From assembly GCA_053919585.1 (NCBI GenBank), contig CM132800.1: DNA of 64,000 nt; one strand, given 5' to 3'. The position numbers and the translations under genes were made by a program. The notes below the pieces were generated by a model. The model was not told the DNA's origin and ran no database searches. It worked only from the letters and a program-made list of their open reading frames with translations. Below, in pieces: positions 6,392 through 60,410 of this stretch (its first letter is position 1; each line of letters opens with the position of its first letter). The stretch is from Euprymna scolopes (lineage: Eukaryota).

Positions 6392-7445
6392 ATTTTTTAA
6401 AAAAATACAAAGGAGTCACCACTTATTAAGGCCCAGAGTCCACTCGAGAAGAAAGGTTAAGGAGTATACAGAAGTAAATAGGAAAATGTCGTAGTAATCG
6501 TTAGTAGTGGAAATTTGATAAATTGGATTACTTAAGGTATGGCCCATCCATAACGTTTTCACGTTGTATTGAGGACGGCCATACTGTAGTCAGTTGGAAA
6601 GTCTGCAAACGGAACAGATCACTACCGGCGTGAAGTTCTATTAAAGAAGATATGTTCATGGAATCTACGTTTATGTTTAGGCACAGATAAAGAGTGGGTG
6701 GAAATATTGATAGTGGTTTTAGGTAAACGAATGTTTTACGTGAAAGTCTGGTCAGAGGGGACCATGGATTGGATCTCTGACGAGCACTTGCCATGAAACT
6801 AGCGATAAAACAGAGAAGGCTCCCAACGTCCTCTCTGGACAAGAGATTGCAGGGAAAAGAAAAGGTCATTCCCTTCCTAGTTTTTTTTAACTCAAAGCAG
6901 GGAAAGGTGATTCTACCAGCTACTGCCCAAATATGGCAACAGAACTCCATCCATTGACGTACTTCGCTCTCATACTGATAGAGAATTTTATCAGCAGTGA
7001 GATACTTACTGGGGCGGTAAAACGATCCAACCATTTTTCCAGCAGCCTGTGAAACGGATTTGATGTAAATGTTCCATCTCAAATCAGGGGTAAACATCAG
7101 ACGCAGAAGCTTGTCGAAACATGAAGCCTCCCCAAGATTAGAGCTATTCATTTCAGTTGATGCCAGACGGGGATCAGCGTTGATAATGTAAAGATAGAAG
7201 CTTGGTTTTAGGTGCATCAAAAGTAATCAGCCACCCGTTTGCCTAATAGTACCACGTGATCCAGATCAGAGGAGAGAGAATCAGAGAGAACTTGGTCGTT
7301 TAGGGCATTTGAAGTGTTGCCATAGATGGTAGTGTCGTAAGCATAAAAGTCTATTAATGATCTTAGGATATGATTTGGGAGGTCATTGATATAGGTCAGC
7401 AACAGAGTTGGGCCCAGAATGGACTTCTGGGGGACTCTAGCGACA
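6392..7445 (-). mobile_element. 5'-truncated CR1/L2-group LINE (RT 3' half + 3' UTR), decayed
   Basis: VPQKSILGPTL..YINDLP..YAYDTTIY (degenerate YADD), MEFCCHIWA; 3' UTR similar to 40945-41013. Confidence 0.9.
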
Positions 7446-11124: not shown

Positions 11125-12402
11125 CGAGGGGCGTGCAATAAGTAATGTCCCTGACCCACTTCCAGTCTGATCTAGCTGAAATTTTGCATGTGCAATGATT
11201 TATATCTCTACGATTTATGTGGCAAATTACAGCTCTGAACTAATTGTGGTTTCTGTTTTACAGGTGTTTGAACTGAGTCAGGTGTGAAATGGAGCCTGTT
11301 GAATGTCGAGCAGTGATCCGGTTTTTGTATTTGAAAGGGCACACACCACAGGAGACTTTTGATGAAATGAAAGAAACTTATGGTGATAATGCCCCATTAT
11401 ATGACCTTATAAAACGCTGGCATCGTGAATTCAAACATAGCCGGCAGTCTGTGGAAACAGCTCCCAGACCTGGTCACCCCCCTTTTGCCATTGATGAAAC
11501 ATCTGTCCGTCAAGTTGAGGCTGCCATTTTGGAAGATCGGCGCATTACTATTCGCCAAATAGCCCAAGATATCAAGTTTAGTACAGGGTTTTGGAAACTA
11601 TAATTCATGACCATTTGCATATGCATAAGGTGTTTGCCAGATGGATTCCCAGGTTGCTCACACTATTGCAGAAGCGAGAATGCTCGATTATGAATGTGGA
11701 GATGTGCCAAGAAGATGAGTCAAACTTTTTCAAAAGACTGATTACACAGGATACAACCTGCGTCCATCACTATGATCCAGAGACCCAAGCTCAGTCAATG
11801 CAGTGGAAGCACTTGGACTCACCACCTCCAAAGAAGGCAAAGTTACAGCCCTTCACTGGCAAGGTCATGCTCACAGTCTTCTGGGACCAGGATGGAGTAG
11901 TGATAATAGATTGCTTGGCAAAGGGTACCAAAATTACAGGAGCCTAATATGCTTCACTTTTGAGGAAATTAAGGGAAGCTATCAAAATAAATAAGCGGGG
12001 TAAGATCAGCAAGGGTACCCCCCTCCATCAGGAGAACGCTCCGATCCACGACTCGCATGTCGCCAGATCAGAAGAACTGGTGTGTTGTTATTAAATATAC
12101 CCCATCCTCTCTACTCTTCTGACCTTTCACCATGTGATTTTCACCTCTTCCCAGCCATGAATTTGTTTTTGAAAAGGAAAGTGTTTACCAGAGGATGCAG
12201 CGTTAATTTCTGAAGTAATGTCGTGGTTGGAGGACCAACCAGGGGGGTTCTACACAAACGGTCTCCAGAGCTGCATCAAACCATAGGAGAAATACATACC
12301 TCTGTATAGTTCCTATGTAGATAAAGACTAATAACTGTGCCAAGTTTCGTTGCTCTACTGCTATGGGAAGTGGGTCAGGGGCATTACTTATTGCACGCCT
12401 CT

Positions 12403-12404
<2 letters not shown>
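11125..12404 (+). mobile_element. Full-length mariner (DD34D, irritans-like), decayed
   Basis: TA|CGAGGGGCGTGCAATAAGTAATG..CCCACTTCC TIR and its inverse at ~12366-12404. Confidence 0.92.
11289..12331 (+). pseudogene. mariner transposase with frameshifts and stops
   Basis: RAVIRFL, WIPRLL, ITQDTTCVHHYDPET, GKVMLTVFWD, HQENAPIH, YSSDLSPCDFHLF motifs across frames. Confidence 0.92.
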
Positions 12405-12443
<39 letters not shown>

Positions 12444-12596
12444 GGGGGGTAGGTAGGTGGGTAGGTATATAGGTCGGTATGTGCGTATGTTAATGCTTAA
12501 AAGTTGAATTAAAAAGATTTTGGAAAATATAAATATTTCAAAAATCTTTTAAATTCAACTTTAATTTATTACTTTGAACAATTACAATTTCACCAC

Positions 12597-12661
<65 letters not shown>

Positions 12662-12714
12662 CGCACATGATACACAATATATCATATAATGAAATGCCCT
12701 GTAAATAGTATATA

Positions 12715-13296
12715 TGTGACTTTTGGACGTGACCTTTACACGTCCTCGACCCTTTGATCGCAGCCCAGTTATGATCTGCACCCTGGTCGGTACAGTTATG
12801 ATATGTCGACTGGGCAACCAGGTCTGCCAACCGTTAGTACGTCGCGTCACCCAGTGAGTTCTTCGTTAAGGCGTTGGGGATTCTTCTCGGATGCTCGGTC
12901 CTCAAGGCCTATTCTCCGTGGATCGTCTAGTTATCCTGGGTGTTCGTTGACGGATACGGTGTCACAAATGGCAAATAACGAAATATCCACAGATGTGTCC
13001 TTGCACGTGTGACCTTTACCGTGGTCACATTTGGCAAATAAAGAATGTACATATATACGGATCAACGCACATCAGCAACAAAACTCCGGAGGTTAGTTAA
13101 TATAATATATATTTCGGAAATTCATAAAAGAAGTATTTACAGCATATACATAGAGTTGACAATTAATTCAAGCAAGCAGTTAGTTTTACAACTGAGCTTC
13201 TGTTGTTAAAATACCTGGTCGGTATTGCGGACTTTGCGTAATTCTCATTAAGTAATCTATACGTATAAACGTTGAGTTATCAGGCAACAAGCGAGG

Positions 13297-13329
<33 letters not shown>

Positions 13330-14392
13330 GATTCTGCCGAGACTTATCTCTCTTTGACTCTTACTGCTCTTCACTGACTACTCTGTTCTACTGACTGACT
13401 TAATCTTTGATTTTTCACTTCTTTTATAATACAATTATGGAACGACTGATTATAATTCGACGGGGCCTTTTCTCATTGGTTGATTATACTTCGACAGGGC
13501 CCTTTCTCATTGGTCCATTTCCAACATTGGATTGACTCCTCCCTTAATTAACGCCCAACTTACACGGTGTATTAATTTACTCCTCCCTGGCTTACTAATG
13601 GAATTTTTCATATACAGGAAAATTATTTTTCCTTTTACTTAAAGCAAATCACGCGATTTTATTTGTTTTAAAATTATCTATTAATCTCACCTTTCGCTTT
13701 GATAATTCAAAGGAATTTTAGTTTATCTTTGAATTAAGTTCTGGTTGTCGGCCATTTTATTATATCAGACATTTTGTTTACGTCAAAAGACCAAGAATGC
13801 ATTTGTCGCTTTGAACTTATCGGCAACACACTTTCCCATCCGAGCAAAAATATTTCATAAATTCCCTTTTTTCGTTCGACCTGAATCACCAAATGACAAT
13901 TCTCGATACGTTATCTCATTGTTTTGAAATTTCGGACAATTCATTTTTTTTCCTCTTCTTTGTTCTAAACACAATGCCGAGTCACTGCGTGTGTTTCAAA
14001 AACAACCCGACTTTTCAACTTGTCAAATTCCCAGGTCAACTTTTGGCTCATAGTTTTTCCAATTGCGGGTGTGAAATCCCCACCCCTCCGGCTACTGTAC
14101 ACTATGATTTCGGCCATTGGAGATCAAACGCCTGTGTATTTTGGCTAACATATTTTATGCATTCTTTTTCGCTTTTGAAGTCTAGAATTTGATTCAACTT
14201 TTTGCTACAAAGGCACTCTTGCCGCCGCTATTTCAACAACAGACTTAGCTCAGAATTTATTCACATATAAAAATTAATAATAATTTTTATTCCTTCAACC
14301 CGATTATCGTCCGGGAACAAAAAATCACTTTTAACCAAAATAAACGTCACATCAACCCTACAGATCTGATGTGGCCTCTCTTTAGTCTTACA
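12715..14392 (-). repeat. 3' LTR (1678 bp)
   Basis: Direct repeat of 18058-19769; starts TGTAAG right after the PPT on the minus strand, ends ..GTCACA. Confidence 0.93.
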
Positions 14393-14402
14393 TTCGCCCC
14401 CC
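14393..14402 (-). promoter_or_regulatory. Polypurine tract
   Basis: GGGGGGCGAA immediately before the TG of the 3' LTR. Confidence 0.75.
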
Positions 14403-14899
14403 ATGGGGCGACGCTCTCCACAGGATACCGGCGCCCCATGTCCGTTAACACTCAAAGAGATTCTCTCATCTCATAACACAATTCTGGCCTACTCTGAAAG
14501 CGAGAAATTACTGAATTACATACAAAACAAATAATCATGCAGAAATTGAAAGTTCATATAAATGGCTACTGCCTTAACTCAGAGTGTTCAATAACAGTTC
14601 GTAGTGGTGGTTTCATAAGCAAAAATTTCATGTAACAAAATCGGTAATAGTGAAAAGTGTCTCTTTTTTTTTCTTCGTTTTGGAACATTAAGCATGCAAT
14701 TAGTCCTACATTAACATCACTTAATAGTGTTTAAAAATATTCTGTAGGTTCAGGTTCTTGTCGTAGGGGTGGATTTGGGGCGGGTTCCTCGTCGCTCGTC
14801 TGTAGCTTCGCCAGGTTAATGCGGACCCTTTTGTGATTCCTGACCAGGGTCGCTCCCCGCAGCGCCATAGGTCGCCAAGAGGCATTTCGAACACTCAAT

Positions 14900-15945
14900 T
14901 CCATACATCCACTTCTTCAAATAACACATCACCACCATTAATAGCCCTGCTATAACCCCTATTCAACCCGTCAGACCCCCACCATCACCAAGTTAGGAGG
15001 GTCGCACGTTGACTCCTGCTTAATTATGTGGTCCAACTGACGTTGTAAGCTGTCTAATCATAACCAGGCGATTCCGATAGACTACTCTAGTCTTAACTGT
15101 CCCTTTTCGACTATTCTAAGAAGCACCTTCTTTCGGATTCACCTCAGCTCTAACCCCTATAGGCTAATCTCGTAATCTTTCTCTTTTAGTTCGTGGTTCG
15201 TAGGGTTCAAATCATGCACTGCGGACCGTCAGACAACATACTTCAATCACTTGAGGATGTTTGTGGCATTCAACCCTAGAATGCCCATGCCCATCCGTGG
15301 CATTTTGGGAAGGGGCACACCCTGTGTCCCCTCAGATTGTATAGTCAGCCTTTATGACTGATATACCTCCCGGCTTTTCTGCCGAATTTTTAACACTTCC
15401 TCCTGCAGGTGTGCAAAACGCCCAGTAAGGGTGATTAAGTGTTGCTCTATTTTCATATTAAGTATGTAGAGACCGCTTCATTTACATAGGCTAATATCTT
15501 CTGTCCGTTTTTCACGGCTCTCAATCTTCGTCGGATACTTTCGACATTTTCCTCAGCAACCACACCAAACAGAGCTCCCCGGGCCCTACTTATGATAGGT
15601 ATTACCGCCCGTCTATGTCGACCTCCAAGTCTATTTATTCTCCAGTCAACCATTCTTGACCGAGACCTCCCGGCTTTTCTGCCGAATTTTATTCACTTCC
15701 TTCTTTCAGGACCTACCTGTCATAGGTATTATCGCCCACTCTATCGACCTCCAAGTCTACTTATTCTCCAGTCAACCATTCTTGACTGAGACCTCCCGGC
15801 TTTTCTGCCGAATTTTATTCACTTCCTTTTTCAGGACCTACATGTCATAGGTATTATCGCCCACTCTATCGACCTCCAAGTCTACTTATTCTCCAGTCAA
15901 CCATTCTTGACTGAGACCTCCCGGCTTTTCTGCCGAATTTTATAG
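14900..15945 (-). pseudogene. Internally deleted env-like gene (F-protein/errantivirus-type fusion motif)
   Basis: RHRR|AVIPIISRARGALFGVVAEENVESIRRRL at ~15520-15620, followed by heptad-like segments; hydrophobic LVMVGGLTG*IGVIAGLLMVV near 14930-14995. Confidence 0.65.
15594..15942. repeat. ~125-bp tandem repeat x ~2.8 within the env remnant
   Basis: Units start at 15594, 15721, 15846; partial extra copy near 15365-15410. Confidence 0.9.
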
Positions 15946-16610
15946 TTTCTCCCGTCAACAATTATGACGGCTACAGAAGGTTGTCTCCGCCCGTGCACAC
16001 CACTACCGTTTGCGTCCTTCGAATTAACGAGAAGACATCCTGAAGGATTCTTCCTTCTTGCGCTTTTCTTCTGAAACATTAAGGGTGCTTATCTTCTTCC
16101 TAACATGCGATCTCTGTTAGATTTTCCTTTCCACTAATGCGTATTCCAGACAACTAGCATTTAACTAAGCGGCCGATACTCGTGCTTTCGGTCGACTTAT
16201 TCTCGTATCTCTCATAATAGATTTAGTCCTAGAGCTTACCCTAGTGTTCTATTCCTAGTTCCCACTAATCTGTCTTCATCGTGACCTAGGGCGCTCTCTC
16301 TCTATCCATCTCTTCGTGCTTATAGAGTTGGCGGGTCGCAACTTCCTGTCGCCCCAACTCTCCTCCGGACACAGGCCTCGTGCCGCCCTGCCAGGGGTAT
16401 TCTCGGTACTAGGGTGCTTATCTTCTTCCTAACATGCGATCCCTGTCAGATTTTCCTTTCAACTAATGCGTATTCCAGACAACTAGCATTTAACTAAGCC
16501 ACCGCTACAGAGTTGGCGGGTCGAAACTTCCCCTTGCCCCCAACTCCCTTCCCGACACTGGCTTCGTGATGCACTGCCAGTAGTGCCCTCAGCCAGTGGG
16601 CACCCTCTTA

Positions 16611-17393
16611 TCAGAGGTCCTCCCTGTATCCTGCCACCGCCGCGGACATAGGGACCGGCAACAATAGGCCTCCTTGGGATCCGTCCGTACTCGGCACATT
16701 TTCTCTGGGGTCCGCCCCGGGCGGCTCCCCCTTCCTGGTGAGACATCCTTTCGTTATGTGCCCATCAGGGTTGTACGTGAAACAATAGCACTCACCTTCA
16801 TCAGGGGTCGGTTGACAGCGGCCGGATTGGGGCCCCTTGTTGGCCCTCGTACCTCTTTCCTGGGGCTGCAGTGACACATCCCCTGCAGCGCTCCCCAACT
16901 CTCTTATGTTGGGATCAGCTTCCGCCTCTGTCTCCCAATCCTCCTCGATCCCCCAAAGTTGGACATCCGAGACCTTCCTCTCTCGAACTTCCTCGACTTC
17001 GGGCTGGGGCGGGGTTTGTCGGGTCCGCTTGGCCGAGCGCCCCCTCCTCCGAGGTGGTCCTTGTGTGCCCGCCTCTCCCGATAATGTGGCGTGGATCAGT
17101 GTCCATTCTCGGCCGTTTGATAGGGCTCTGTCTGCCCTTATCTTCCCTTCTGTGCTACCCTTCTCTAGCACCTTGGCCGGCCTAGCCTGGATGGTCCCTT
17201 TTTCTTTCAGGATACCCTCCGACAACACCTTAGTTGCCCTCTCAGCCAGTTCCGCCACTTCCTCAGCTGCCTCCTGTAGCAGTCTGAGTAACTCCCTCGC
17301 CCAATCTCTCTCAGTACCAGTCTCCGTCACCACCCTCTCTACTCCCCCTAAAGCCTTGCTCTTATGTTCCACCGGCTCCGTCATTCTTGTCAA
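16611..17393 (-). CDS. gag-like ORF (260 aa) with degenerate zinc knuckle
   Basis: First long ORF after the PBS; coiled-coil-like N-terminus; CFTYNPDGHITKGC fits CX2CX4HX4C with one Cys replaced by Tyr. Confidence 0.6.
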   Translation of the reverse strand: MTRMTEPVEHKSKALGGVERVVTETGTERDWARELLRLLQEAAEEVAELAERATKVLSEGILKEKGTIQARPAKVLEKGSTEGKIRADRALSNGREWTLIHATLSGEAGTQGPPRRRGRSAKRTRQTPPQPEVEEVRERKVSDVQLWGIEEDWETEAEADPNIRELGSAAGDVSLQPQERGTRANKGPQSGRCQPTPDEGECYCFTYNPDGHITKGCLTRKGEPPGADPRENVPSTDGSQGGLLLPVPMSAAVAGYREDL

Positions 17394-18036
17394 ACGGGGA
17401 TTCGCCTGTCTATCCCTTTCTCACTATTTCCACAAGTAATGCCTCCAGGCGCCCCCAAACCACTGCGGAAAAAAAATACCCAAGTCAAAAAAATCACAAA
17501 AAAATAAGAGGGTCTCACTTATATCTCGCTTCGCTTCAGGTTCCGAGAGTCGAGTTCCCGTAGTTTGGGGTAGCACGCTCACTCACAGAGCGCAAGGAAA
17601 AAGTCTATACTGTTCAGTTTGTGATTTATTTTTCTTCTTTCTTCTTTAACTTCCAAATGACGCGTTGTCGTAGTTTCTTGTTGTTGGTTTGTCTCCTCAA
17701 TGACGTTGTGCCGTGGTAGTGTTTGTTGTCGATTGGTTCTTCAATGCAAGCAGCCGTTTCAGTTTTTGGTGGCTGGTTGGTTTTCTCCTTCAATTCAATA
17801 ATGCTGCGCTGTAGTTTATGATTTCCTTCAAAAACGTCGTGCCGTGGTAGTGTTTGTTGTCGATTGGTTCTTCAATGCAAGCAGCCGTTTCAGTTTTTGG
17901 TGGCTGGTTGGTTTTCTCTTTCAACTCAATAACGCTGCGCTGTAGTTTATGATTTCCTTCAAAAACGTTGTGCCGTGGTTTTTCTGCTGAGTTTTTCCTC
18001 CCGGTTGATGTGCCGTAGAAGCCCTTCAGGGTCCAA

Positions 18037-18055
18037 ATCCTGGTCGCCGTCACCA
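18037..18055 (-). promoter_or_regulatory. Primer binding site
   Basis: TGGTGACGGCGACCAGGAT 2 nt after the LTR CA end; resembles a tRNA-His-type PBS with mismatches. Confidence 0.7.
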
Positions 18056-18057
18056 GA

Positions 18058-19769
18058 TGTGACCTTTCGACGTGTGCCTTACACACGTCCTCGACCCTTT
18101 GATCGCAGCCCAGTTATGATCTGCACCCTGGTCGGTACAGTTATGATATGTCGACTGGGCAACCAGGTCTGCCAACCGTTAGTACGTCGCGTCACCCAGT
18201 GAGTTCTTCGTTAAGGCGTTGGGGATTCTTCTCGGATGCTCGGTCCTCAAGGCCTATTCTCCGTGGATCGTCTAGTTATCCTGGGTGTTCGTTGACGGAT
18301 ACGGTGTCACAAATGGCAAATAACGAAATATCCACAGATGTGTCCTTGCACGTGTGACCTTTACCGTGGTCACATTTGGCAAATAAAGAATGTACATATA
18401 TACGGATCAACGCACATCAGCAACAAAACTCCGGAGGTTAGTTAATATAATATATATTTCGGAAATTCATAAAAGAAGTATTTACAGCATATACATAGAG
18501 TTGACAATTAATTCAAGCAAGCAGTTAGTTTTACAACTGAGCTTCTGTTGTTGAAATACCTGGTCGGTATTGCGGACTTTGCGTAATTCTCATTAAGTAA
18601 TCTATACGTATAAACGTTGAGTTATCAGGCAACAAGCGAGGGGGCGAGAGAGAGAGAGAGAGAGAGGTGATTCTGCCGAGACTTATCTCTCTTTGACTCT
18701 TACTGCTCTTCACTGACTACTCTGTTCTACTGACTGACTTAATCTTTGATTTTTCACTTCTTTTATAATACAATTATGGAACGATGACGACACCCATGTT
18801 CGTCATCGAACAATCAAATTGCTTGATTATAATTCGACGGGGCCTTTTCTCATTGGTTGATTATACTTCGACAGGGCCCTTTCTCATTGGTCCATTTCCA
18901 ACATTGGATTGACTTCTCCCTTAATTAACGCCCAACTTACACGTTGTATTAATTAACTCCTCCCTGGCTTACTAATGGAATTTTTCATATACAGGAAAAT
19001 TATTTTTCCTTTTACTTAAAGCAAATCACGCGATTTTATTTGTTTTAAAATTATCTATTAATCTCACCTTTCGCTTTGATAATTCAAAGGAATTTTAGTT
19101 TATCTTTGAATTAAGTTCAGGTTGTCGGCCATTTTATTATATCAGACATTTTGTTTACGTCAAAAGACCAAGAATGCATTTGTCGCTTTGAACTTATCGG
19201 CAACACACTTTCTTATCCGAGCAAAAATATTTCATAAATTCCCTTTTTTCGTTCGACCTGAATCACCAAATGACAATTCTCGATACGTTATCTCATTGTT
19301 TTGAAATTTCGGACAATTCATTTTTTTTCCTCTTCTTTGTTCTAAACACAATGCCGAGTCACTGCGTGTGTTTCAAAAACAACCCGACTTTTCAACTTGT
19401 CAAATTCCCAGGTCAACTTTTGGCTCATAGTTTTTCCAATTGCGGGTGTGAAATCCCCACCCCTCCGGCTACTGTACACTATGATTTCGGCCATTGGAGA
19501 TCAAACGTCTGTGTATTTTGGCTAACATATTTTATGCATTCTTTTTCGCTTTTGAAGTCTAGAATTTGATTCAACTTTTTGCTACAAAGGCACTCTTTCC
19601 GCCGCTATTTCAACAACAGACTTAGCTCAGAATTTATTCACAAAGAAAAATTAATAATAATTTTTATTCCTTCAACCCGATTATCGTCCGGGAACAAAAA
19701 ATCACTTATAACCAAAATAAACGTCACATCAACCCTACAGGTCTGATGTGGCCTCTCTTTAGTGTTACA
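18058..19769 (-). repeat. 5' LTR (1712 bp)
   Basis: Direct repeat of 12715-14392 with an extra ~36-bp segment near 18785-18822. Confidence 0.93.
18728..18910 (-). promoter_or_regulatory. LTR core promoter: CCAAT boxes, TATA box, TCAGT initiator
   Basis: Minus strand has three CCAAT (~18850-18910), TATAAAAG (~18760-18767) and TCAGT about 30 nt downstream; same arrangement in the 3' LTR. Confidence 0.6.
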
Positions 19770-19784
19770 TATATGGAGAAGGCT

Positions 19785-20478
19785 AAACGAGAAACAAAGA
19801 CATGCGTATAATTCTCACATGTGAATAAACCTTCATTAGCCCCCAAAATTTTCAGTAGATGTCAAATCCTGGTGAACATGAACAAACGGTACAGGTGAAG
19901 GCCTTAACATATGTAAATTTGGGTTGTACACCATGCAAAAAAGAGAAATGACGACGTCCATTTTTTGCCCTCTCCCATTTAGACCCAAAAGACCCCAAGG
20001 CCTTAACATATTTAAATTTGAGTTTAGCACCATATAAAACTGCTAAATTTACATACACAGAAAACATTGGATACATATGGTAAAATAGTCTCAAAAATGG
20101 AGCGCTTTTATTAGCCTTAAAAGAGCCCCTGGGGCACACCCAAGAGTTATCGCGAAGTATAGGCAAACAAAATTACATCGAAATCAGTTAGTTAGAACTT
20201 TTCAGAAAGTTTTATAAAATCCAAAGCATCAAGTTTTTTTTTAATAAGCACAAAAGTATCAATTTTAACCATTTTTACCCGAAAACCTCCTAGGGGAGCA
20301 ACCGGAGTTTTCCTGGAAAATCCGCTCTGTTATTTTTACTCATATCATGTTTAATGTTTGTGCAAAATTAAAAAAAAATTCCAAGACGTAGTTATTGAGA
20401 AAAGTGCGCACAGACAAAAAGACGGGCGAACAAGGGTGAATTTACAGGTGCAGATTCCTTTTTGCGGGGGACCAATAA
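19785..20478 (+). mobile_element. Possible Helentron-associated (HINE/DINE-1-like) non-autonomous element
   Basis: A-rich start, internal duplication (aggccttaacatat x2), gaca/gacg-like motif, short terminal hairpin ttcct-ttttgc-gggga then A-rich end. Confidence 0.4.
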
Positions 20479-20528
20479 TATGAATAATATAAAATATAAA
20501 TGTAATTTTTCATTTATCTTATGTTGTT

Positions 20529-25904: not shown

Positions 25905-26480
25905 ATCTTGAGTGTTATTCTCACAATATTTTTGTCGGTATAATCTATGAGCTTGTTCAATAAATTAATATACAATAAATATTAGCTTATTGTATTAAGT
26001 AGTGATCGATTGTAATAAATAGTAGTCTATTGTAATAACTTGTAAGATTGTAATACAATAACAAGAATGGGTTTAAAGATCATAAACTGCATAAGAGAAG
26101 TCAACACAAAGGTTCACAACATAATAGAACTCAACACAATGGTTCACAATATAATAGAACTCAACACAATGGTTCACAACATAATAGAACTCAACACAAT
26201 GGTTCACAACATAATAGAACTCAACACAATGGTTCACAACATAATACAACTCAACACAAAGGTTCACAACATAATAAAACTCAACACAATGGTTCACAAC
26301 ATAATAAAACTCAACACAATGGTTCACAACATAATAAAACTCAACACAATGGTTCACAACATAATAAAATTCAACACAATGGTTCAGAACACGAATAAAG
26401 CACTGCATAATCTTCAGTTCTAAGTAACAAATGAGCATGGTCGAAAGTACCAATCCGCAGATGCTTAGAATACAAATGTG
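25905..26480. repeat. Interspersed repeat; second copy ~28645-28950
   Basis: Shared ctcacaatattt..gagcttgt.caataaatt..taaatagta..ctattgta..aagattgtaa. Confidence 0.8.
26091..26390. repeat. 30-bp minisatellite x10
   Basis: (ataatagaactcaacacaatggttcacaac)n. Confidence 0.97.
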
Positions 26481-28050: not shown

Positions 28051-28234
28051 GCTGTCCCACTGAAATTCACCATTATTATTATTTGATGGCAAATTTTGAA
28101 TTCAGGAAAAGTTGATTTATCTAAATTAAAATTATTCTTGTATACTCGTCAGTGTTATTATTTTATTGCAGAATAAAAGCCTTACGAATAGAAAATAGTG
28201 AACGAATGGTTATATGGGCAAATGTTGAGTATTT

Positions 28235-28620
28235 CAAACGACAGTTTAACAACAGGTTTGAGTATTTAACAAATAGGTTTGGGTATTTAACAAATAGGTT
28301 TGGATATTAACAAATAGGTTTGGGTATTTTACTAACAGGTTTGGGTATTTGAAAATAGATTTTGGTATTTAAAAAATAAGTTTGGGTGTTTAACGAATAA
28401 GTTTGGGTATTTGACAAATTGGTTTGAGTATTTGACAAATTGGTTTGGGTATTTAAAAGTAGGTTTGGGTATTTTACAAATAAGTTTGGGTATTAACAAA
28501 TAGGTTTGGATATTTAACAAATAGGTTTGGATATTTAACAAATAGGTTTGGATATTTAACAAATAGGTTTGGATATTTAACAAATAGGTTTGGATATTAA
28601 GCACATAGGTTTTGCTATTT
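28235..28620. repeat. 21-bp minisatellite (~18 units)
   Basis: (aacaaataggtttgg(g/a)tattt)n. Confidence 0.95.
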
Positions 28621-29307
28621 AGATTACTCCTACTTCTGTTTTACCCTTGGATCTTATACTCACAATATTTCTGTCGATGTAACCACTGAGCTTGTCCAAT
28701 AAATTTATATGCTGTAATATGTAGTAGTTTATTGTAATCAGTAGTGGTGTATTGCAATAAATAGTACTCTATTGTAGTAACTTTTAAGATTGTAACACAA
28801 AAACAACAATCTTAAAGTGCATAATAGAATTGAACACAAAAATTCAGTACACAAAGAAAGCTTCAGTTATGCGTAACAATTCATTGTGGTCTAAAATACA
28901 ATCCTCAGTGATGATCATACTAAGAAGACAAATGACAATTATTTAAGATTTCTTACTAGTAATGTCTGTTATTATTTTTCTTTTTTGGCAAGAAAACACT
29001 TTCTGAGAAAAAGAAAACTATGTATTTTGCGATAGGTGTGTTGCAAATATTTACATAACTTCAATAGTCGTCTCCATGGTAAAAGGGTTATAATTACTTG
29101 TGTAACCATTTAATAATTCCAGAATCTAACCAAGGATCAGTATTGATGGAATTGTCAATAAAATTATTCACACTCGCGAGCCATGTGGAAATTCTACGGG
29201 GAACTCATTCATCAGGAATATTTTAATGTTGGCATTCGGTAGATGTTCAGCATAAATGGAAACGCTCTGATAGCTCTTTGGTTAAACTGCAAAAGTATTT
29301 ATCTAAG

Positions 29308-29527
29308 CTAGCAAGGACGCCCGGCACAGCCAGGTTGTTAAAGACGCTTAAATATGATGTTTTAATTCTTGCAGATTTTGAATATTACTATAGAGTTAAT
29401 GTTCTAGCGATTTATAAAGTTGCGATTTCCAAAATAAAAAAAAATTATCCGTATGACTTTGAGGCATCAACTTGAATCGAAACCGAAACTTATATACGGT
29501 TTCGATTATAGCTGAAGGATCTCAAGT

Positions 29528-29587
<60 letters not shown>

Positions 29588-29750
29588 ACTTGAGATCCTT
29601 CAGCTATAATCGAAACCGAAGCACAAAACTTATGAAGAATTCTTGATAAAATTATTCATAAAAAATAGATTACTGGAGTGCCATCAGTTTTAATCGAAAC
29701 GGAAACCAAATCTTATAAAGAATTTTTGGTAAAATTATTTATTACAAGAA
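29308..29750 (-). mobile_element. Helitron-like family; related copies at ~51054-51250 and ~59525-60500 (latter split by a LINE)
   Basis: CTAG + hairpin, shared cttaaatatgat and catca...aatcgaaa blocks. Confidence 0.6.
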
Positions 29751-37259: not shown

Positions 37260-39180
37260 TTCTATCTGGGACATAATTGCCGGGATATTATGAAAGGAGT
37301 TGAACGCAGGATGTCTGTTTACATTACACTTGAACTTCTACATATCACTATCGTCGGAGAAGCATGAATGCGGAAGAGTAATCCCAGGTTCAGTAGTTCT
37401 GGGGAAAGAACTATTAGAGTAGAAGGCCTTCTAGCATCTGGGGATCTCTACTACGTAGGTGGGGGACTTTGCTGCTTCACAGATTTGTCGGGGATATTTA
37501 CGTTCAGGGGATACAAGGACTAATTAAATAATTAAATTAAATACTTGTAAATCAGACGGGGATGCAACATTTCGTCGGTGGGAGAAAGGGTGAAGGATAG
37601 CTGACAGTTCGGGACCTATTCGGTTGGCGACTCTCTTCTGAACGATCTGCAGGAGTGAGAGACTAGTAGCAGATGCATCAGCCCCAAATGTGACAACAAT
37701 ACTCCATACATGGGCCAATAGTGGCCTTGTAGAAATACAGGATACAGGCGTAAGTAATTTTCTAGCATGGTAGAGATAGCCAATCTTCTTTGCAGCAGCC
37801 GTAGCAATGCTCTTGATGTATCTGTTCCAGCTCATATTTTCCTCATATGAACGTAAAACCGAAAAGTTTGAACGAAGTACTTTTAAGTAATGTATAATTA
37901 GCAATAGCTATTGCTGGTTCAGAAGGTTTCTTGTAAATATTACAGGAAATAAGCTTCATTGAATGTTAATATCCATTTCTGTCCCCGAACGACAGATTGG
38001 ACGAGTTCCTCTATTGCATTAGATATGTATCCATTTGTTTTCTCCTTCTGCCTACCATAGAGCGTGGTGTCATCCGAAAATATACCAATCCAGAGACAAT
38101 TTTATCAGGAGGTAATTTATGAATATTAGGAATAATAAAGGTCCAAAGATCGATCCCTGAGACATACCCTCATTTATATCATATTGTCTTTTGACGAACG
38201 TCCATCGAGGACAACCTGGATTCTTCTTTAACCAAAAACGAATTTAATGTTAAGCATACGTCCAGTATTACCATATGATCTGAGTTTCATGAGAAGCCCT
38301 TGGTGCCACACCCTGTCAAAAGCCTTAGGTATATCTAGGGTTACTAACCAACCTTTCCTTGCTTAATCCAGTGCATGATAAATACGTTCACAGATTACAG
38401 TTAGGATATCTGCAGTAGGAGAAGCTTGCCCAAATAAATATTGTTGCTCGGACAGAAGTTTAGCCGTTGTAGTGGACGAGCTTTGTTGATTATTGACTCA
38501 AGTATTTTGTCGAAAAGAGGGAGTCGGCTAATAGGGCGATAATTCAATGCGTTAGTTCTTTCGCTAGAAATATTGTGAACTGGTACCACAGAAGCAGTGT
38601 ACTCGCAGCCAGAAAATCAAGATTCGTTAAGGTATTTACTGAAGAGTTTCGAGAGCACTGGAGCAACCTCAACGAAACATTTTTTTTTTAATATTACAGC
38701 CGGGATTAGATCAGATCCACATGCTTTTGAGGTGTCTACGTTTTTTTATGATATCATGCACTTGGAAGGAGTAATTTTAAGATCATCTAATGTGGTTTCC
38801 GTCCGCAAAGGAAAATCAAGGAGGGATGGTTTGGTAGGTCCAATGTAGCGTTTAAGGCAAGACTTCTCAGTTCCCATGCAAGAAATTTCATGATTGTTGA
38901 TAGCGGGGGAAGTGTTTATTGACCATTATTTACTACACTGTTGCAGATTTCCAAAAATCTCGAGTTCCTAATTTCTGTGCTTCAATACGTTTTCTGCCTG
39001 TTTCGGTGTATTCATTTTTAGTTGTTGCTATTTCTTTCTTGTAATTACTTCTAGCTTCTATAAACCTTCGTCTGTTTGTACTGGACTTATATCGGATAAA
39101 CCTACGGTATGCATGCTGCCTTTGAGCAATATCAGCTGCGCAAGTAGGAATAAACCATTGGGGAGAGGGAGATATGCTAT
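37260..39180 (-). mobile_element. Decayed CR1/L2-group LINE ORF2 (RT)
   Basis: NYRPISRLPLFDKILE, LDIPKAFDRVWHQGLL, SQGSIFGPLLFLIFIN, FSDDTTL, LHPFSHRRNVAS. Confidence 0.9.
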
Positions 39181-39950: not shown

Positions 39951-40431
39951 ATAAATGTAATTCGCTATAAAGTTTTTATTTTATTTTTAACTTGTATCTA
40001 TGATGTAAATAACTTTACTTGGCCATATAGGCCTGCATGTCTTTCCACTTTCTTTACTTTCTTCTTGCTTCCAGATAAGTAGGAAGAGAGTTACATAGGA
40101 ATCGAGTGCTCCACGCAAGCGAACACACAAACGCAGTAAGTGATTTTAAGGCAATTACGATAATCTTTGTCACAAAGGGGCATAACATCTCACTTTCATA
40201 TCCGCTTCTTTCTCTGTCTCTTTTCGCTGGGCCTCTAAACAATGCAGATGTGACTAAAAACACTTCCCGGTTCTGGCGAACGATCAGCCCGCCATTTGAA
40301 CTGTCATCAAAAAATCTCGAGGCCTAAACTCAAGCAGCGTTAACCCATTCATCGTTCGCTATTAACTTTTGCAATTTTTAATTTGTATCTATGATTTAAA
40401 TAAATTTACTTGGGTGTAATAACAATATCGG

Positions 40432-41013
40432 CATATAAAAGCCAAGTACGGCCAAGGATGGAATACTGTTGCCATATCTGGGCAGGAGCTGCTAAAAACA
40501 GCCTATCATGCCTTGACAGAGTACAAAATAGACTTCGTGGTTTAGTGGGGGATGCCCTTTTCTCTACCCTGCAACCTGTCTCCCACAGAAGAGACGTTGC
40601 GAGCCTATCCTTGTTTTATCGTTATTTTCATGGCAGGTGCTCGTCTGAACTCCAATCCCTGGTCCCCCCTCGCCAAACTTTCACGAAAAACACCCGTCTA
40701 GCTGAATCCACTGTGAAAAATTTCCCCCACTCTATATCTGTGCCTAAATCAAAACGCGGATTTCATGAGCAAAGCTTCTTTCTTAGAACTGCACGCCTGT
40801 GGAACTCTGTTCCGTCTGCCTGCTTCCCTCCGGACTACAACTTGGATGTCTTCAAGTCTAATGTTAACAAATTCCTAATGAACCGCCCCCCCCCTAATTA
40901 AACACTTCATAAAATCTCCTCACTAACGTGATGTACTTGCAATAACCCTTATCCCTGAGTGGCTTCCGGGCCTTGATAAGTGGTGATCACTGTGTAAAAA
41001 AAAAAAAAAAAAA
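40432..41013 (+). mobile_element. Well-preserved 5'-truncated CR1/L2-group LINE 3' end with poly(A)
   Basis: Open frame YKSQVRPRMEYCCHIWAGA..SHRRDVASLSLFYRYFHG..RTARLWNS..FKSNVNK, 3' UTR and A tail. Confidence 0.93.
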
Positions 41014-43205: not shown

Positions 43206-44522
43206 TCGTGAACAAAATAATGGGCCATGATTAAAATTGGAACAAAAAAAATGGGCCATGATTGAAATTGGAAAGAAAACAATTTTTAAAATTTTTATCG
43301 CTTGTTTGCTAATAATTAGCTGTTATTTAGTATTTTTCAGATTATTAGTATTAAAGATGAGTCCAAGAAAAGTAAGACGACATCTTGACGAAAAAATTAA
43401 AAACCGAATTGCAGGATTACGACAGGCAAATTTGACTTACAAGCAGATTTTCGACATTTTGAAAGAAGAAAAGGTGGCAAAATTTCTTTCAGCTGTGAAG
43501 AAAATTGGGCAAAGGTTCGAAATTGAAGGCACAGTGAGCAGGAAAGTTGGTCTTGGTCGCCCCAGAGCATCCACAATGAAGGACGATCACAGGCTTAAAA
43601 TGACCGTTTTGAAGGATCGCAAAAAAACTTATGTTGACCATAGCAAACAATTCGAAACAGCAATAGGAAATTCTCTTTCTAGAGTGACAATATCCAGAAG
43701 GATGAAGGAAATGGGATTTTCATCAAAAAGATGTGCAAAAAAGCCTTTGTTAACTAAGAAGAACATCAGTGACAGAAAGACATTTGCATCATGTTATGGT
43801 ACGAAAGATGCAGATTGGTTTAGAAATGTTTTCTGGTCGGACGAGTCAAGATTTTGCCTTGCCAGTGATGCCCCTGAACGTTGCATCCGAAGATCCGGAA
43901 AAAAGATTTTCACCGAATTGCATAAAAACCACAGTAAAACATGGAAACGGAGGAATAATAGTATGGGGGACCTTTTCTGCTGCAGGAGTTGGGGAAATTA
44001 TCAGATGTGATGCGTCAATTAATGCCAAAGAATACATTCAAATATTAGAAAGAGGTCTATTACCAAGCATCCAGAAGTTAGAAATGAACAATGACATTAT
44101 TTTTCAACATGATAATGCCCCTGCACACACAGCAAAAGTCACAAAGAAGTGGCTTACTGATAATTCAATTGATGTGATGCTTTGGCCTGGCCAAACCCCA
44201 GATTTAAACCCAATGGAAAATATTTGGGCTATAATATCTCGTGCATTAGTTAGAAAAACTTTTTCCAACAAAGAAAAATTATGGGAAGCAGTACAAGGAG
44301 AATGGAATAACATCTCCTTTTCACAGTGCTCCAAGTTGGTTGCGAGCATGATAAAAAGAATTGATCTTTTAAAAAGATCTAAGGGCAATTCAATTCCATA
44401 CTAAGTTTTTATTAAAGTAAATATCTTGCTCTTTATAGTTTTACTCATTTTCGTTTATTATTTAATTGCATTTTGTGTAATAAATTGTAAATTTCTTTCC
44501 TGGCCCATTTTTTTTTGTTCAT

Positions 44523-47325: not shown

Positions 47326-47510
47326 ATAGTAAAACTTTATAAACTAATTAAATAGGCTAAATTGATTTAGAAAATGGTAGCAAATACGATGGTAAGATGT
47401 ATCTAAATTAATATATAATATGAACAAGGAAGTTAAGTATGATTATAAATGTCACATAGTATAATACTTAATTGTAGAGTAATAAATAAGAGCATGCATC
47501 TACATATATA

Positions 47511-49141
47511 CAGTGATGATCATATTTATTGGCACGGTAAAATAAAAGTTAAATTTTGTCTAATAAATTCTAAAAAAGGGATTAAATTAAAGAAAATAAC
47601 AAAGTATATTATGTATTTTTAACTGGCCTTTCCGATGCAGCAATCGGATTTTAGAAAAAATAAATAACAAAGGAACAACAAACATAATTGCAAAAAACCC
47701 TTGTTCAAAATTATTGGCACGATTTATTTAATAATCAATTGTATAGCCTTTGGCCTTGATTACCTTCCTCAGTCGCTTTTCATAGTTTACAACCAAGTTG
47801 TTGCACTCTTCAGTAGTAATTTTAGCCCACTCTTCCTGACAATAATCTTCCAATTGAATAAGATTCTTAGGCTTCCTTTGCATTACCCTCAATTTTAATG
47901 TTCTCCATAAATTTTCAATTGGATTAAGTCTGGGCTTTGTGATGGCCACTCCAAAACATTAATATGATTGTCCTCAAGCCATTTCTTAGTCAGTTTAGCC
48001 GAATGCTTTGGGTCATTATCTTGCATGAACCACCAACGACGACCAAGTGAGAGCTCTTTAGCAGAGTCTTTCAGGTTTTCATCCAATATTTTAACATAAT
48101 CTTCCTTTTTTATGCTACCTGTGACCTTAACAAGTCGCCCTGGTCCAGAGGCAGCAAAGAATCCCCAAAACATCAAACTGCCTCCACCGTGCTTCACTGT
48201 GGGTATGGTGTTCTTAGGCAGGAAAGCTTCGCCAGATTTTCGGTAGATATAAGACACTTTATTATGGCCAAATAACTCTATTTTCGTTTCGTCAGTCCAT
48301 ATAACATGTTTCCAGAATGCAACATCTTTATCAATATGACGTTTTGCAAAGGCTAGCCTTGCTTTCAGGTGCATAGGCTTCAATAAGGGAGTCTTTCTCG
48401 GACGACATGCTTTTAAACCAGCTCTCTTCAAAACTCTACCAACTGTATGTCGAGATACATTCACTCCAGAGGTGCTCTGTTCATCAACAATCTCTCCAAC
48501 AGAGATCCTTGGGTTTTGTTTTACTTGTCGAACAATTTTCCGTTCATCTCTTGGGGAAAGAATCCTTTTTCTCCCTCTACCCTCTAAACTCATAACGTGG
48601 CCTTGCGATTTGAACTTGTTTATTATGGCTCTAACAGTGGATTTGGGAAGGTTTAGCTTCTTTGAAATCTTATCATAGCCCTCCCCATTGGTATGGCATG
48701 CAACAACAAGCTTCCTGACGTCTTCGCTGTGTTCCTTAGTTTTAACCATGGCGATTGAAATTATAATTTAGTCACTTATAATAGTTTAAATAAATCGCTA
48801 TCTAAAAATTATCTGAAAAAAATTATTCACTGAATTAGCGTTAAACAAGCATAATATGGCTATAAAAAAGTTCAGAAAGCACGTAAACCGGAAATTGATT
48901 GATATTATACTGATACTAAAAGAAAAACAAAGCCGTGCCAATAATTTTGAACAAGGGCTTTTTGCAATTATGTTTGTTGTTCCTTTGTTATTTATTTTTT
49001 CTAAAATCCGATTGCTGCATCGGAAAGGCCAGTTAAAAATACATAATATACTTTGTTATTTTCTTTAATTTAATCCCTTTTTTAGAATTTATTAGACAAA
49101 ATTTAACTTTTATTTTACCGTGCCAATAAATATGATCATCA

Positions 49142-49144
<3 letters not shown>
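47511..49144 (-). mobile_element. Very young full-length IR/DR Tc1 (1634 bp, 211-bp TIRs)
   Basis: TIRs 47511-47721 and 48934-49144 differ at one position I could find; attggcacg DRs; TA flanks. Confidence 0.97.
47728..48749 (-). pseudogene. Tc1 transposase, apparent 1-bp deletion near 47925
   Basis: [50 protein letters not shown]. Confidence 0.95.
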
Positions 49145-49223
<79 letters not shown>

Positions 49224-50715: not shown

Positions 50716-52229
50716 TTATTTTAAATTTGTCTTTCGATCTAGATGTGTACTTGTATCGATTATTATGAACTCAAACTGAGGTTTATGTATGTCTCAGAAT
50801 CGAGGAATTCAGATTCGAACTAAAAAATCTAATTGGAAAATAACATTTTGTTTTTTCTCATTGTTTGGAGGTTTCAATTATTGATTCAATTTTTTTTTCT
50901 CTCATAATAACGTATTGTAAAACACTTAATAAAATTCATGGAAAATATTACAAAATATATATTTCTATGATAAAAATATTCATAAATTTGTCCTAATTAA
51001 TAAAATAATTCTCAGAGACTGTATCTTTTTATGTAACAGGCGTTTATATTAAACTAGCATACCTCCCGGTGTTGACCAGTCAGAAGATACGCTTAAATAT
51101 GATATATTATATCATGCAGATTACGTATTTATTATTATAGACAATTCGGTATTGATTATTATATTGTACCCAATCTATAGTAGTGAGATGAAACTAAAAT
51201 ACATGTATATGACTTGGGCGGCATCAGCTAGAATCAGAACCAAAACAAGCAACTCTCCACTTTCATCCCTTAACCCCTNNNNNNNNNNNNNNNNNNNNNN
51301 NNNNNNNNNNNNNNNNNNNNNNNNNNNNNNNNNNNNNNNNNNNNNNNNNNNNNNNNNNNNNNNNNNNNNNNNNNNNNNNNNNNNNNNNNNNNNNNNNNNN
51401 NNNNNNNNNNNNNNNNNNGGGTTTAGGGATGAAAGTGGAGAGTATATATATGCACTAGACTACTCGTGACCCGTTGAGTCAGTATATTATATTAGCTATA
51501 GAATTGATGTATGAGCGTGCCGCTTGTGACGTAAAGAAAATAGTTTTTTTTTTACATAACAGAAACATTTCTATGAAAGTATATTAAAATGAAAAGAGAA
51601 TATAGATAGATTTCTATGAGTCGTTCTGTTTTCTATTAATGCTTATTTTTGAAAAGATTTTTTTACAGTTACTGAATTATAAGTGGTTGGCCATAATTAT
51701 AGGTAAATGTACACTAAACAGATACCATAATACTTAATATAGTTAAATTCAAATTTTGAAATATCTGCTTTTTTTTTTACATCGTTCATTGCTGTATTAC
51801 GTTTAAGCTATTTTAAACCTCACTCTTTCTATGCTAAATAATAATATCAAAATAATAACGTTAAGGTTTCAGCGTCCTAATTGTTATTTTTTCGCGTTTA
51901 AATTATCCCAATAAACAATTGTTAATACTGTATGTTTCTTTTACATCATTCATTTCTGTATTACGTTTAAGGTATTTTAGACCGCACTCTTCCCATGTTA
52001 AATAATAATTTCGAAATAATAAGTTCATATTTCAGTGCGCATTTCATGTCGTAAACCGGAAAGTGGGTTACATACATNNNNNNNNNNNNNNNNNNNNNNN
52101 NNNNNNNNNNNNNNNNNNNNNNNNNNNNNNNNNNNNNNNNNNNNNNNNNNNNNNNNNNNNNNNNNNNNNNNNNNNNNNNNNNNNNNNNNNNNNNNNNNNN
52201 NNNNNNNNNNNNNNNNNNNNNNNNNNNNN

Positions 52230-59574: not shown

Positions 59575-60410
59575 TTTTTTTTTTACATGGAAGTCACCGC
59601 TTATCACGGCTAAGGGTTATTGCGTGTACAGTAATCAACGGGATAGTATCGTAGTAATTATTAGTATTGGAGATTTGATAAAGTGTCTTACTTAAGGGGG
59701 CGGTTCGTCAGGAATTTGTTTATGCGGGACTTGAAGACATCCAAGTTGTAATTAGATGGGAAACAGGCAGACGGATGAGAGTTCCACTGGCGTGCATTTC
59801 TAAGAAAGAAGCTTTGTTCATAGAACCTATGTTTTGGCTTTGGCACGAGTGGTGAAAATATTTGGCAGTGGTTGTTTAGACGGGTGTTTATCGTGAAAGT
59901 TTGGTGAGAGGGGACCAGGGATTGGAGTTCAGACGAGCACTTGCCATTTAAATAACGATAAAACGACAGGCTCGCAACGTCTCTTCTGTGGGAGAGAGAT
60001 TGCAGGGAAGAGGTTGCAGGGAAGCGAAAAGGGCATCCCCCACTAAGTCACGAAATCTATTTTGTACTCTGTCAAGGCAGGATACGTTGTTTTTAGCAGC
60101 TCCTGTCCAGATGTGGCAGCACTACTCCATTCATGGGCGTACTTGGCTTTTATATATAGAGAGAATAGAATCGGCAGTGAGATAGCTTCTGGAGCGGTAG
60201 AAGGATCCTACTATTTTTCCAGCGATCTTGGCAAGGAACTGGATGTACGTGTTCCATTTCCGGTCAGGAGTAAAGGTCAAACCTAGAAGCTTGTCAAAAC
60301 ATGGAGCCTCCTCTAGACGACCGCCATCCATTTCAATTGACGCCAGATGGGTCTCAGAGCGTTGATGATGTAAAGATAGGAGCTTGGTTTGTGATGCATT
60401 AAAGGTAACT
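59575..60410 (-). mobile_element. 5'-truncated CR1/L2-group LINE, same family as 40432-41013
   Basis: FDKLLGLTFTPDRKWN..YKSQVRP, 3' UTR and T run at ~59576. Confidence 0.92.

Follow-up and report, generated by a model that had tools for sequence, protein, structure and literature searches.

A pol-less LTR element with a probable F-type env remnant in Euprymna scolopes, likely a helper-dependent derivative of an errantivirus-like ancestor

How can a long terminal repeat (LTR) element that has no recognisable pol and only a decayed env still possess two nearly identical LTRs? This question is raised by the element at positions 12715-19769 of a stretch of 64,000 nucleotides from Euprymna scolopes (contig CM132800.1 of assembly GCA_053919585.1; the whole stretch is referred to as the window), which is read from the minus strand. 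It is likely that this element is a multi-copy, non-autonomous derivative of an errantivirus-like Ty3/gypsy ancestor that carried an F-type env, and that it has been moved by the Gag-Pol of a helper. The ends and cis signals are as follows.

12711-12714, unstranded: left copy of the target site duplication (TSD), TATA, preceded by A, compared with the right copy
12715-14392, minus: 3' LTR, 1678 bp, with a TATA-box-like hexamer at 13423-13428, from the LTR alignment
14393-14402, minus: polypurine tract (PPT), purines at 9 of 10 positions, abutting the 3' LTR
18038-18055, minus: degenerate primer binding site (PBS) with a TGG start, 2 nt past the 5' LTR
18058-19769, minus: 5' LTR, 1712 bp, including a 38-bp stretch (18785-18822) that is missing from the 3' LTR, from the LTR alignment
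19770-19773, unstranded: right TSD copy, TATA, followed by T, compared with the left copy

Both LTRs have TG..CA ends, and the near-identical 1.7-kb LTRs and intact TSD of the initial annotation are borne out: 1652 of 1672 aligned columns are identical (98.8%), with 20 substitutions (10 transitions and 10 transversions) and 4 gaps, and the alignment, which had been proposed for dating, gives a Kimura two-parameter (K2P) distance of 0.012. The 4-mers of the two flanks are identical while the 5-mers differ, and the target context is A-TATA-T. Such a target together with a 4-bp TSD has been reported for the Drosophila gypsy clade, and 5 bp for Pao elements, in the available text of PMC3276498; the TSD does not fit a BEL/Pao element (roo-like, with an F env). 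As TATA makes up 2.1% of all 4-mers in the window, the TSD alone is modest evidence. PBS and PPT had been described as intact; the PPT has purines at 9 of its 10 positions, and the PBS is degenerate, its first 12 nt having two mismatches to the end of tRNA-Trp and likewise two to that of tRNA-Leu(UAG/AAG), with the tRNA ends taken from the table of Chary & Hayashi as available (PMC13524379). No tRNA was found within the window and no Rfam match over 12500-20000. Because there is no AATAAA or ATTAAA on the minus strand downstream of the TATA-box-like hexamer of the 3' LTR, the R region was not placed. The PPT is also one arm of a short inverted repeat (14394-14411), which might fold into a hairpin immediately upstream of the 3' LTR.

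It might be objected that the gapped assembly has brought together LTRs of different copies on either side of an interior, as scaffold gaps account for 1114 N of the window, 4 substitutions and 2 indels cluster within the terminal 25 bp of the two LTRs in addition to the 38-bp indel, and TATA is so frequent. Such a chimera is highly improbable, however, since the element itself has no N, its PBS, open reading frame (ORF), env remnant and PPT follow one another in the expected order and orientation between matching TSD copies, and reads of a DNA run of another sample, X3, cover 30 of 30 bins of the element including the spacer described below; the best-matching runs share only 0.33 of words, so that X3 may come from a different population or species.

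The interior, apart from the env-like remnant, is composed of the following parts.

17385-18037, minus: 5' leader with a 131-bp tandem repeat in 2.1 copies (17703-17979), from the repeat analysis
16611-17384, minus: gag-derived ORF of 257 aa (P0001 without its first Met), with an N-terminal helix, a disordered body and one degenerate knuckle
15944-16610, unstranded: spacer of 667 bp at the expected position of pol, with two internal duplications and no Pfam match
16082-16179 and 16411-16508: first spacer duplication, 94% alike
16321-16394 and 16506-16580: second spacer duplication, 81% alike
15595-15943, unstranded: 125-bp tandem repeat, 2.8 copies, 95% alike

Together with the env-like remnant and a 3' stretch, the leader, the 774-bp ORF, the spacer and the 125-bp triplication account for the 3.67-kb interior, and a pol of several kb cannot fit in it. 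None of the Pfam families for RT, RNase H, integrase or protease matched any of the six frames of the interior (stops read as X). The spacer, which is the one part of the interior left unexplained, had no Pfam family at all in its three minus frames, in a search in which a Tc1 transposase elsewhere in the window was found with E 1e-24. The initial annotation had seen no RT, RNase H or integrase motif, and had named an RT or integrase match inside 14393-18057 as what would speak against it; with Pfam blank there and no room for pol, its claim that the element is non-autonomous stands. A splice-acceptor-like site at 15971, the single one in about 1 kb, is not counted as evidence.

With a rate between 2e-9 and 1e-8 per site and year, which is our own assumption, the insertion dates back about 0.6-3 million years. 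If each lineage has changed by 0.6% since then, 750 bases are expected to have gained about 0.2 stops, but the three frames of the env remnant contain 19, 18 and 15. The deepest X3 contig over a 344-bp env stretch (15022-15364) differs from the element in 8 letters and one indel, and frame by frame it agrees with the element at 5 of 7, 12 of 13 and 3 of 4 of the stops; on either side of its indel each frame retains at least one stop at a position that does not differ. The commonest related env copy in X3 is thus also broken, and as the stops in each frame far exceed those expected and the breaks are shared with this copy, the decay of env predates the insertion, just as had been supposed.

What kind of env has decayed can be judged from these pieces.

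15456-15692, minus: stop-free env piece of 79 codons with a furin-like RHRR (15609-15620) and a hydrophobic fusion-peptide-like stretch
15355-15477, minus: helix-like stop-free stretch of 41 codons in a frame other than that of the fusion-peptide piece
14963-15477, minus: decayed env-like middle with stops in all frames and no HMMER match
14816-14962, minus: putative membrane anchor (14918-14962), then KK and a short Cys-containing tail to the stop

A cleavage site, a hydrophobic stretch, a helix, an anchor and a short tail thus follow each other in this order, and then comes the PPT. The initial annotation had read a literal RxxR followed by G-x5-FG-xx-D/E, of which there are no matches in the interior; present instead are RHRR, 13 residues, FG (at +14/+15 after the cut) and later EE (at +19/+20). 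Among the stop-free 15-mers of the three minus frames the candidate anchor is the most hydrophobic, with a mean hydropathy of 2.6. From the cut to the anchor there are about 215 codons, and since F1 ectodomains are nearer 350-400 residues, part of the F1 is missing. The 125-bp repeat occupies the expected site of the signal peptide and the F2 part, and it duplicates the cleavage-site region and a piece of 40-68 bp that is found also inside env (15343-15409); upstream of the cut, none of the most hydrophobic windows resembles a signal peptide. In the whole window there is a single match to R-x-[RK]-R-x13-FG, and among 1000 Markov nulls of the interior 8 contain the pattern, a frequency to be read in the light of the pattern having been chosen after the sequence was seen. 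When the env piece was compared with the ESM Atlas, the top three matches (0.94, 0.94 and 0.92, with 202-210 of 256 features in common) carried Baculo_F, as did the clusters of 14 of the 30 matches.

Several results weigh against such an origin. The looser pattern R-x-x-R-x12-14-FG is found in 183 of 1000 nulls and three times in the window; the Atlas recognition value of 1877 lies under the 2300 level, and Baculo_F is annotated on only 17-21% of the members in the matched clusters. Of the six fixed residues of the insect fusion-peptide consensus, GxxxxxGxxxKxxxGxxDxxD (PMC6085415), only one is literally kept, with the spacing to the G at +15 preserved. Pfam searches of the remnant with HMMER gave no match apart from a chance Rota_NS6 (E 0.16), none of 131 word-sharing candidates from a set of 5.8 billion was confirmed, and the middle part of env had no match among 1.84 billion representatives. 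A PDB search with env returned only ribosomal protein uS12 (E 0.06 or worse), which was rejected as chance, and of 9 pattern matches of the env piece in viral contigs none was confirmed.

Could the element then be non-autonomous, but its "env" a chance look-alike or a fragment of another captured membrane protein? The blank results of all HMMER-type env searches, the weak Atlas recognition and a motif picked after the fact would fit such an explanation, but the top three Atlas ranks are Baculo_F clusters with more than 200 common features, the best hydrophobic segment of the interior sits where an env anchor is expected, and the region lies just upstream of the PPT and in the same sense as gag, and it is therefore an unlikely one. 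As the furin-like site, the fusion-peptide-like stretch, the helix and the anchor occur in order and the Atlas clusters carry Baculo_F, an F-type origin of the env remnant is probable, although not proven. An element that is "env-bearing", as had been stated, is thus probable in the sense of an F-type remnant, but this remnant is dead and shortened.

The ORF at 16611-17384 is the single long minus-strand ORF of the interior, and a stop-free run of its length occurs in 6 of 1000 interior nulls and in 12 of 1000 nulls of local composition. Its product P0001 has no Pfam match of its own, and a capsid domain was not recognised. Its sole relative among 4107 candidates (E 1e-56) is P0002, a protein of 290 aa found in Logan only, in a cluster of two Logan members, with which it is 67% identical in a global alignment; longer relatives of P0002 were not found among 7998 scored candidates, which is weak evidence. 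P0002 carries two CCHC knuckles (zf-CCHC, E 1.3e-7) that have been deleted in frame in P0001, while a third, degenerate knuckle is retained by both. Both proteins have a short helical N-terminal part before the disordered sequence, of about 65 residues in P0002, and the stop is at the same residue. An AlphaFold2 (AF2) model of P0001, itself weak evidence as it was made from an alignment of two sequences, has a mean predicted local distance difference test (pLDDT) score of 46.6 and is confident for the helix 24-62 only. The ORF that had been called gag-like is thus real, and gag-like by way of the zf-CCHC of P0002, but with no Pfam match of its own, no recognisable capsid and its knuckles deleted, and presumably neither P0001 nor P0002 can build a capsid. 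ESM Atlas matches of P0001 to zf-CCHC clusters (0.86-0.87) serve as a lead only, and in a PDB profile search (alignment A1) retroviral nucleocapsids came up with E values of 0.29 or worse, owing to the knuckles of P0002. Among 160 pattern matches of P0001 in metagenome contigs none was confirmed.

The substitutions between P0001 and P0002 were analysed in 203 aligned columns, after the first 31 columns had been dropped as poorly aligned. There are 64 differences, 52 of which are one base away, and 19 of the 64 are conservative, which matches the 28-29% that a neutral single-base model expects. This share falls short of the 51% under a model of strong selection (p about 4e-4), but not clearly of the 39-40% under a mild one (p 0.06-0.07). 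By drift about 4.7 stops would be expected between the two proteins, with a probability of 0.009 for none, and every one of about five indels between them is in frame. Of the five listed differences of other copies within the ORF, four affect the first or second position of a codon. This suggests that the frame may be under more pressure than the residues, in a comparison of two sequences only, both of which were found because they are open, and in disordered linkers that drift even in working proteins. It is probable that the small ORF is still translated and kept open under pressure, with little constraint on its amino acids. This open, drifting frame of a shortened gag is the one oddity of the element. 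Conceivably, although this is rather doubtful, helper-dependent errantivirus derivatives form a long-lived lineage in animals, in which a gag-derived frame that lacks a capsid is kept open for its own sake, either by selected translation in cis (for RNA stability or hand-over to the Gag of the helper), or for a helical and disordered protein that acts as an adaptor or competitor in the particle of the helper.

Another explanation would do without a replicating non-autonomous family: the element could be a single copy of an autonomous gypsy element with a dead env, its pol having been removed by a private deletion, either during insertion or afterwards. Autonomous iERV lineages with a dead env are common according to the available text of PMC12992720, and the X3 contigs, of which none runs through the spacer end to end, are deeper on the env side (about 300-410) than on the gag side (about 215-270), so that some env-bearing copies may have another interior. 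With no capsid recognised and the knuckles deleted in frame, however, the ORF is no functional gag, and P0002 shares its short build and its stop. Moreover, the spacer itself is covered in X3 with a depth of 219-267, and its duplicates have diverged by 6-19% and are thus far older than the 1.2% between the LTRs. A private deletion is therefore quite improbable.

A multi-copy derivative, in turn, agrees with the profile of X3, in which the interior had depths of 213-442 (median 322) at 12 places picked by us, and this flat depth, though contig depth is not a copy number, suggests that there are many copies of this interior. The LTRs are about ninefold deeper (median 2870 over nine points, leaving out three short peaks above 11000), which suggests solo LTRs or other interiors, where the helper could hide. 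Against this it has to be said that the X3 contigs are at most 430 bp long and thus no proof that other copies lack pol, and that RNA of the interior is nearly absent from two poly(A) runs, of which about 12% each was read (X21, zero in 11 of 12 bins; X24, depth below 2). Two joints in X3 contigs (16186-16507 and 16418-16578) were dropped as a proof of pol-less linkage, as they lie within the duplicated segments, and run X1 ("RNA?") was rejected as expression because its profile parallels DNA. A 20-nt LTR pattern had no matches in metagenome contigs.

If the element is such a helper-dependent derivative, the host would transcribe it from the 5' LTR, and the RNA would be packaged by the Gag of a related autonomous helper able to recognise the element by its LTR ends, PBS, PPT and leader. 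Priming at the PBS would then be followed by copying by the RT of the helper and by integration at TATA by its integrase. The env would be carried along as a dead passenger, and the loss of pol and of most of the capsid would long predate this insertion. No helper was found, although no genome-wide search for one was made. The helper needs only Gag-Pol and is not necessarily enveloped, since env loss with continued activity has recurred at least 8 times among Drosophila iERVs, as described in the available text of PMC12992720; the ancestor was probably enveloped, and the present helper may have lost its env.

Ty3/gypsy elements with an F-type env, the "ancient errantiviruses", have been described across invertebrates, including bivalves, gastropods and decapods (Chary & Hayashi, eLife 2026, PMC13524379), and in the available part of that paper mollusc errantiviruses have LTRs of up to about 1.85 kb and are all F-type in 25 of about 46 rows. 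The element is like them in its long LTRs, the gag upstream, the env-like region downstream, and the furin site, hydrophobic peptide and candidate anchor, and its RHRR agrees with the RxxR of the F-type definition; unlike them it lacks a continuous gag, pol and env, having no pol, a dead and shortened env and no recognisable capsid. The pipeline in the available text of PMC13524379 excludes such derivatives by design. Direct LTRs with TG..CA and a 4-bp TSD are those of Ty3/gypsy elements, but neither a pol with PR-RT-RH-IN nor a Gag with capsid and nucleocapsid was found, and as there is no pol domain, the element is called a derivative and not a member of Ty3/gypsy.

Like in the TR-GAG elements of plants, which are moved by an autonomous relative (PMC8704663), there are two LTRs, a single gag ORF and no pol. 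According to the available text of PMC8704663, TR-GAG encodes a full Gag of 562 aa and has no env remnant, whereas here a gutted ORF of 257 aa is found in an animal. The Drosophila elements rover LTR-367/376, McClintock and burdock are similar in that env is inactivated in a lineage that is still inserting, and tandem expansions of the 5' UTR have units of 151 bp in rover and 131 bp here, but in the available text of Senti et al. (PMC12992720) the Drosophila iERVs with a dead env keep gag and pol and are autonomous, which this element is not.

Helper dependence with intact cis signals and a defective or absent coding interior is also the way of life of LARD, TRIM, mouse VL30 and MaLR-type elements, and we know of no F-type env remnant in any of these. 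The element thus works like a parasite of the TR-GAG/LARD type and is of errantivirus-like descent, but it is a member of neither group. No description of a pol-less errantivirus derivative with an env remnant was found in the literature searched, which covered few subscription papers and did not include Repbase.

As a single locus, this is ordinary retroelement biology with no working envelope, helper dependence being a known way of life. The element nevertheless marks a likely active gypsy-type helper in this genome, now or recently, and it represents one end point of errantivirus decay, with env dead, pol lost and gag gutted while insertion continues, of a kind that is filtered out by surveys of intact elements. 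If the open-frame effect holds over many copies, it would provide a natural test of cis translation for the RNAs of parasitic retroelements.

The host sequence around the element is AT-rich and rich in microsatellites. The element sits among repeats, and its flanks (12000-12567 and 19770-20500) are very high-copy repeats with an X3 depth of 1e5 and more. A mariner-type transposase fragment is found at 11582-11947 (Transposase_1, E 1.6e-13). A young Tc1/Sleeping-Beauty-like transposon at 47498-49157 on the minus strand has inverted repeats of 224 nt that are 99% alike, and TA-rich ends; its transposase frame (47895-48767, 290 codons, with HTH_Tnp_Tc3_2, HTH_SB and DDE_3) seems short of a full transposase. 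A second Tc1-like transposase extends across two frames at 43231-44404 (HTH_Tnp_Tc3_2, DDE_3). The mutually related segments at 6528-7226, 37524-37907, 40404-40901 and about 59696-60155, several of which pair as inverted repeats, are taken by us to resemble the 3' end of a LINE reverse-transcriptase ORF, with no Pfam matches for the three that were tested. The stretch at 1771-2148, likewise without a Pfam match, presumably resembles a fragment of a Penelope-type GIY-YIG endonuclease. There are minisatellites at 26030-26449 and 28210-28643, with units of 15/30 bp and 20/21 bp, and perfect or near-perfect palindromes without a loop at 29497-29618 and 51252-51443, the latter of which falls on an N gap and probably results from the assembly.

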